From Escherichia coli (GTDB lineage Bacteria > Pseudomonadota > Gammaproteobacteria > Enterobacterales > Enterobacteriaceae), in the NCBI RefSeq assembly GCF_003334305.1, contig NZ_QOWS01000006.1: a stretch of DNA of 64,000 bases; one strand, written 5' to 3'. Shown here one piece after another: positions 60,911 through 60,930 of the stretch. The position numbers and the translations under genes are program-made. Every line of letters starts with the position of its first letter. Position 1 is the stretch's first letter. The notes beneath the pieces are model-generated. The model worked only from the letters and a program-made list of their open reading frames with translations, had not been told where the DNA came from and made no database searches.

Positions 60911-60930
60911 GGCTGTGGTTTTATACAGTC
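60911..60930. promoter_or_regulatory. LexA operator (SOS box) of polB
   Basis: ggCTGTggttttatACAGtc fits the CTGT-N8-ACAG consensus and lies about 55 bp upstream of the polB start codon. Confidence 0.7.

Follow-up and report, generated by a model that had tools for sequence, protein, structure and literature searches.

Evidence for a single, weakly matching LexA operator at the polB (dinA) promoter of Escherichia coli

LexA footprinting and ChIP-chip evidence has been published for polB (dinA), the Escherichia coli gene encoding DNA polymerase II. Reviews place the gene in the SOS regulon. In PMC3009722 (Tables 4 and 7) polB is UV-induced and preceded by the LexA motif ATGACTGTATAAAACCACAGCCAAT; AZT induces polB 4.7-fold with a 3.1-fold dependence on LexA cleavage as judged from lexA3 (PMC11228462 Table 1), and a cloned polB promoter fragment directs UV-dose-dependent GFP expression with 'middle' timing in a study whose promoter fragments cover the entire intergenic region (PMC5999292). 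According to a review (PMC6590174, citing Dapa 2017), RpoS also regulates polB positively. In the Salmonella SOS paper, the main-text table lacks a row for polB. The published expression data fit a weak operator.

Against this background the polB box of the DNA studied here shows both shared and deviating traits. Common to it and the boxes of umuDC, sbmC, recN, dinD and sulA (TACTG(TA)5CAGTA) are the CTG-N10-CAG arrangement, an AT-rich spacer, dyad symmetry and overlap with the core promoter. Unlike those five boxes, which reach 20-28 bits in leave-one-out scoring, the polB box scores only about 4 bits, and its right half-site is CCACAGCC instead of the ATACAGTA of strong SOS boxes. The recA box is located between the -35 and -10 elements (PMC5999292), whereas that of polB lies over the -35 region and upstream of it. 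The operators of Citrobacter, Enterobacter, Kosakonia, Salmonella, E. albertii and E. coli SCU-301 have the same register, invariant block and -10 block but are nearer to the consensus. With respect to the polB/dinA SOS box of K-12, the 20-mer, its neighbours and the published motif are the same, as is the heterology index class of ~12-13, and the site itself thus presents no difference. The polB LexA operator is already well known, and our analysis adds nothing new on E. coli in this respect.

The window, by which we mean the whole 64,000-nucleotide stretch of DNA analysed, derives from a non-K-12 E. coli strain with ~98.7% identity to K-12 over polB and araD. The preliminary description had assigned an SOS box to positions 60911-60930, between the araD stop and the polB start, and this placement proved exact (Table 1). 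On the minus strand, which is the polB-sense strand, the 20-mer reads GACTGTATAAAACCACAGCC; the plus strand reads GGCTGTGGTTTTATACAGTC. Its CTGT-N8-ACAG core at 60913-60928 is CTGTATAAAACCACAG, with the CTG and CAG triplets exactly 10 bp apart as in the core of a LexA operator. The intergenic gap measures 74 nt (araD TAA at 60934-60932, polB GTG at 60857), and the box begins 1 nt past the TAA and ends 53 nt short of the GTG. All long ORFs around it are on the minus strand. The identity of polB rests on a match to the NCBIfam equivalog NF004420 (1792 bits; cut-off 1435), and the RefSeq annotation agrees. A comparison with the K-12 polB operator, which the preliminary description had proposed, revealed that the 20-mer and the surrounding 401 nt are identical in MG1655 (window coordinate + 4923 = MG1655 coordinate). 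The gene order in MG1655 is araB-araA-araD-polB-rapA, and the araD and polB pair is likewise annotated in ~5,400 complete E. coli genomes (RefSeq). In the araD-araA spacer (~61690-61780) the window has fewer copies of an ~84-nt tandem repeat than K-12 MG1655.

Table 1. Coordinates of the polB operator, the associated genes and signals, and small RNA matches in the window
Feature	Position	Strand	Remarks
LexA operator (SOS box) of polB	60911..60930	-	K-12 MG1655 65834-65853
polB (dinA), DNA polymerase II, regulated gene	58506..60857	-	783 aa, GTG start
araD, L-ribulose-5-phosphate 4-epimerase, last araBAD gene	60932..61627	-	TIGR00760 equivalog, 448 bits; RefSeq
Putative -35, CAGCCA	60910..60915	-	3/6 to TTGACA; 17 bp upstream of conserved -10
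-10 hexamer, TATACT	60887..60892	-	In AA.CAGG.TATA.T, invariant in 18 Enterobacteriaceae; preceded by GGC; C at -13
Predicted polB transcription start and short leader	60858..60884	-	Start ~60880-60884; array resolution limited
Stem-loop plus U-run, putative araBAD intrinsic terminator	60872..60902	-	AAACCAGGC-TATACTC-AAGCCTGGTTTTTT
tpke11	8636-8713	+	Rfam gathering threshold
sok antitoxin RNA (hok/sok module)	10098-10250	-	Rfam gathering threshold
ES003 sRNA	26017-26069	+	Rfam gathering threshold
naRNA4	54661-54740	-	Rfam gathering threshold

Apart from the small RNA matches listed in Table 1, one further region of the window deserves mention. Some 3-4 kb within ~12,800-17,900, between a 307-aa ORF (11894-12817) and a 313-aa ORF (17910-18851), are presumably absent from K-12. 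The ORF at 14337-14972 aligns with no more than the central part of a fimbrial usher model (positions 438-656 of 826), and this partial match suggests, at the level of sequence comparison, a decayed fimbrial operon.

Taken alone, the motif score of the polB box is at chance level. Using a symmetrised LexA matrix derived from 17 published sites (PMC3009722 Table 4) with polB excluded, the box obtains 3.97-4.37 bits and ranks 14th among the 63,981 positions of the window, and ~9.2 sites that are equal or better are found per 64 kb of first-order random sequence. This score is the lowest among the 18 known LexA sites, the other 17 of which range from 12.9 to 28.7 bits (leave-one-out). A similar picture emerged from the heterology index (Berg-von Hippel/Lewis type), computed from the same published sites as the matrix: the value for polB is 12.2 when polB belongs to the training set vs 17.0 when it is left out, compared with 1.9-10.0 for the other 17 sites, and polB comes last or second to last in all versions (whole-site benchmark, ~<15). 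The published index is ~13 (PMC11228462 Table 1). The CTGT-N8-ACAG core occurs once in the window as opposed to 0.73 expected copies, and 51 of 100 shuffled windows carry at least one. The box departs from the consensus by its G at position 1 and by a CC at 14-15 and another at 19-20. The preliminary statement that the site matches the LexA consensus is therefore correct for the core only; the fit of the 20-mer as a whole is borderline and the weakest of the 18 sites.

What raises the polB box above chance is its position and its conservation. There are 33 copies of CTG-N10-CAG in the window, and a crude ORF map assigns two of them to non-coding DNA, namely the polB box and a site at 63943. 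The latter is GC-rich, scores -3.7 bits, and is close to the end of the window where the ORF map is unreliable. The polB box has a positive score and A or T in eight of its ten spacer positions, and it is the only non-coding, AT-rich CTG-N10-CAG of the window; no second CTG-N10-CAG is present within the 74-nt araD-polB gap. Two copies inside long ORFs, at 46903-46922 and 12536-12555, score 10.7 and 10.0 bits, respectively, and thus rank above the polB box.

Conservation was assessed in species-representative genomes, which were scanned with a DNA pattern back-translated from the PolB N-terminus; this yielded 120 loci. The 300 nt upstream of polB were scored with the polB-excluded matrix, and two sets of 300-nt windows inside the gene served as controls. 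Sites of at least 10 bits were found in 29 of 119 polB upstream regions but in none of the windows in either coding control set. Without exception, the best site of the Enterobacteriaceae is located 72-76 nt from the polB start (73 nt in the window). An alignment of 18 sequences from this family revealed that CTGTA.AAAA...CAG is invariant and in the same register in 18 of 18, and apart from this block and AA.CAGG.TATA.T no solid invariant block precedes the start codon.

The boxes of the relatives are AACTGTATAAAACCACAGCA in Citrobacter werkmanii and Enterobacter sp. Bisph1 (15.5 bits), ACCTGTACAAAATAACAGTA in Citrobacter youngae (14.8 bits), AGCTGTATAAAACCACAGCA in Kosakonia cowanii (13.7 bits), TACTGTACAAAATATCAGTA in E. 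coli SCU-301 (13.1 bits), GCCTGTACAAAATAACAGTA in Salmonella enterica subsp. arizonae (9.8 bits) and AACTGTATAAAACCACAGCC in E. albertii (9.0 bits). With 3.9 bits vs 9-15.5 bits, the E. coli box is the weakest of the 18 relatives, which is due to the G at position 1 and the C at position 20. Derivation of the K-12-type box from the SCU-301 type by a 10-bp deletion was considered and rejected, as the two share the 73-nt distance to the GTG and give a gap-free alignment. In the preliminary description a low matrix score had been named as an argument against the box, and the score is indeed low. It does not refute the assignment, however, because the operator is known to be among the weakest of the classical SOS boxes and because the orthologous boxes of sister genera reach 9-15.5 bits.

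Strong boxes upstream of polB are also found in Betaproteobacteria (Oxalobacteraceae, Polaromonas, Curvibacter), where they are independent of the enterobacterial boxes and at other distances from the gene. Examples are GGCTGTATGYGCATACAGTA, 30 nt upstream in Oxalobacteraceae, and TACTGTTTTTTTGTACAGTA of Polaromonas with 22.5 bits. The matrix scan of 300 nt detected no box upstream of polB at the Burkholderia, Paraburkholderia and Cupriavidus loci or at most Stutzerimonas loci. Given the presence of boxes in some lineages and their absence from others, LexA control of polB is recurrent but lineage-specific. In Curvibacter gracilis and C. lanceolatus a 20-mer equal to the SCU-301 box is located ~117 nt upstream of polB. 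Transfer or contamination was rejected as its origin since the flanks are unrelated, native, GC-rich DNA; convergence on the LexA consensus was the explanation retained.

Whether the box belongs to polB or to araD can be judged from genomes in which the two genes are separated. Three of 5,426 E. coli genomes, SCU-301 among them, carry an insertion of ~1.4 kb with three hypothetical genes between araD and polB. In SCU-301 (NZ_CP051751.1; 3159-4635 of the extracted locus, L003) the inserted genes encode proteins of 110, 88 and 147 aa and are on the opposite strand; none of the three has an NCBIfam match. In this strain araD has a separate terminator, and polB is preceded by a stronger box in the same register and a perfect TATAAT. 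Likewise, the box is kept in Citrobacter youngae, Citrobacter FP75, Salmonella arizonae, Pseudocitrobacter and Siccibacter, where the end of araD is 0.7-1.1 kb away. Across SCU-301 and the other genera with araD at a distance of 0.7-1.5 kb, the box is located 73-76 nt from the polB start. As read from these gene arrangements, the box goes with polB and not with araD.

The promoter of polB is non-canonical in that it combines a strong -10 with a weak -35 element. A consensus scan of 60500-61300 for sigma-70 promoters (at least 9 of 12 matches, 16-18 bp spacing) returned no site, a result that weakens the notion of a consensus promoter but not that of transcription starting here. The -10 hexamer of the window and of K-12 matches the consensus in five of six positions, and TATAAT is present in another E. 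coli representative (L044), in E. albertii and in most relatives. The invariant -10 follows the box after 18 nt, and the first 5 nt of the putative -35 are within the LexA 20-mer; the operator thus overlaps the core promoter, in part by way of this predicted element. In combination with the weakest box, TATACT makes the common E. coli polB promoter look attenuated at the -10 and less tightly controlled at the operator. The CTATACT context, with C at -13 in GCTATACT, resembles the -10 preference of sigma-S-responsive promoters. With the limited resolution of a tiling array, the 5' end of the UV-induced polB transcript maps near 60883 as calculated from the motif offset (PMC3009722 Table 7), that is, ~28 nt downstream of the box and ~4-7 nt past the -10. 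A transcript starting upstream of the site had been named in the preliminary description as evidence that would speak against it; both the invariant -10 and, within its limited resolution, the array 5' end are located downstream.

Superimposed on this promoter is a hairpin with an 11-bp stem and a free energy of -16.2 kcal/mol (z = -4.9), which was equalled by none of 200 shuffled sequences in RNA folding. On the minus strand its stem is directly followed by a U-run, as in the structure of an intrinsic terminator; the terminator scan flagged the hairpin on the plus strand only. The -10 of polB is located in the hairpin loop. A strong hairpin (-13.4 to -17.5 kcal/mol) is present in all nine species in which the araD stop is 76-115 nt from polB. 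Where araD is not adjacent, the hairpin has vanished or is greatly weakened in Salmonella arizonae (-3.1 kcal/mol), Pseudocitrobacter (-1.1 and -6.3 kcal/mol) and Siccibacter (-8.5 kcal/mol), kept in SCU-301 (-17.0 kcal/mol), and retained with reduced stability in three Citrobacter (-9.2 to -12.1 kcal/mol). In the simplest reading the hairpin terminates araBAD transcription and coincides with the core promoter of polB. The 5' arm of the hairpin, AA.CAGG, is invariant in 18 Enterobacteriaceae even where the 3' arm and the hairpin are lost, so that the promoter spacer is evidently under some constraint (-14 being G and -13 C or T).

Based on sequence, position, conservation and the published LexA-dependent induction, we consider it very probable that the polB (dinA) promoter has one LexA operator, namely this 20-mer. 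Along the minus strand, the 74 nt would accommodate in succession the araD stop, 1 nt, the LexA box, the -35, the hairpin with the -10 in its loop, the start site and the GTG. A LexA dimer would bind to two half-sites, CTGTAT and the weaker CCACAG, and the operator would extend from about -50 to -31 relative to the transcription start, covering the weak -35 CAGCCA and the DNA just upstream. Bound LexA would keep RNA polymerase from the promoter, most likely at the -35 and upstream DNA. Upon DNA damage, RecA-stimulated self-cleavage of LexA would free the operator, and transcription of polB would then proceed from the conserved -10 TATACT, giving the mRNA a leader of ~25 nt. For an operator so distant from the consensus, one would expect leaky repression and modest induction. 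What we infer in this model is the precise location of the -35 and of the start site, how occlusion is brought about, and that the hairpin functions as a terminator. As to the SOS inducibility of polB claimed at the outset, the published UV and AZT induction and its dependence on LexA cleavage bear it out, and our phylogenetic footprinting across the Enterobacteriaceae lends independent support.

Given the low score, the 20-mer might be a chance CTGT-N8-ACAG devoid of a regulatory role, with polB induction originating from elsewhere. The expectation of 0.73 cores per window, at least one core in 51 of 100 shuffles, a score of ~4 bits with rank 14 and ~9 random matches per 64 kb are what this idea would predict. 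It does not account for the constancy and fixed register of CTG and CAG across 18 Enterobacteriaceae amid variable intergenic flanks, for boxes of at least 10 bits upstream of 29 of 119 polB genes vs none in the coding controls, or for the lack of any other CTG-N10-CAG in the 74-nt gap, and it is at odds with the published LexA-dependent induction of polB; we consider a chance origin extremely improbable. Equally hard to credit is a function of the box in the arabinose operon, with LexA halting araBAD transcription as a roadblock or assisting its termination. The location of the box between the araD stop and the terminator hairpin means that araBAD transcription must cross it, but the box stays 73-76 nt from the polB start in six named taxa or strains in which araD is 0.7-1.5 kb off, araD of SCU-301 has its own terminator, and a weak operator would be expected to make a poor roadblock.

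It might also be argued that the conserved block serves mainly as part of the promoter, as a -35 or an upstream element, or binds some other regulator, its likeness to a LexA site being secondary. CTATACT resembles what is generally known of the sigma-S preference. The box overlaps the putative -35, the AAAA at positions 9-12 is invariant beyond the usual need of a LexA site, and RpoS dependence of polB has been reported (PMC6590174, citing Dapa 2017). However, invariance falls precisely on CTGTA and CAG, which are critical for LexA and spaced by 10 bp, the orthologues reach 9-15.5 bits with a LexA matrix built without polB, and strong LexA boxes exist independently at polB in unrelated Betaproteobacteria, which makes a mainly non-LexA function very unlikely. 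A dual role as promoter element and LexA site is compatible with the operator assignment that we favour.

The polB box may serve as a calibration case, as it illustrates that a genuine, conserved and experimentally supported operator can score at chance on a weight matrix; motif scores alone would thus have wrongly rejected it. Beyond the assignment itself, we put forward as a tentative and rather doubtful proposal that the overlap of terminator, operator and promoter has regulatory consequences, and that the weak E. coli box may be a derived and perhaps adaptive loosening of SOS control. Since araBAD transcription crosses the operator, the -35 and the -10 before terminating, arabinose induction could change Pol II expression. 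If the proposal is true, such an arabinose effect would come about via promoter occlusion, LexA displacement or terminator read-through. For the cell, the polB box determines how much DNA polymerase II, an enzyme of translesion synthesis and stress mutagenesis, is made in the basal state and upon induction, and a loosened SOS control, if true, may raise basal Pol II in the E. coli lineage.
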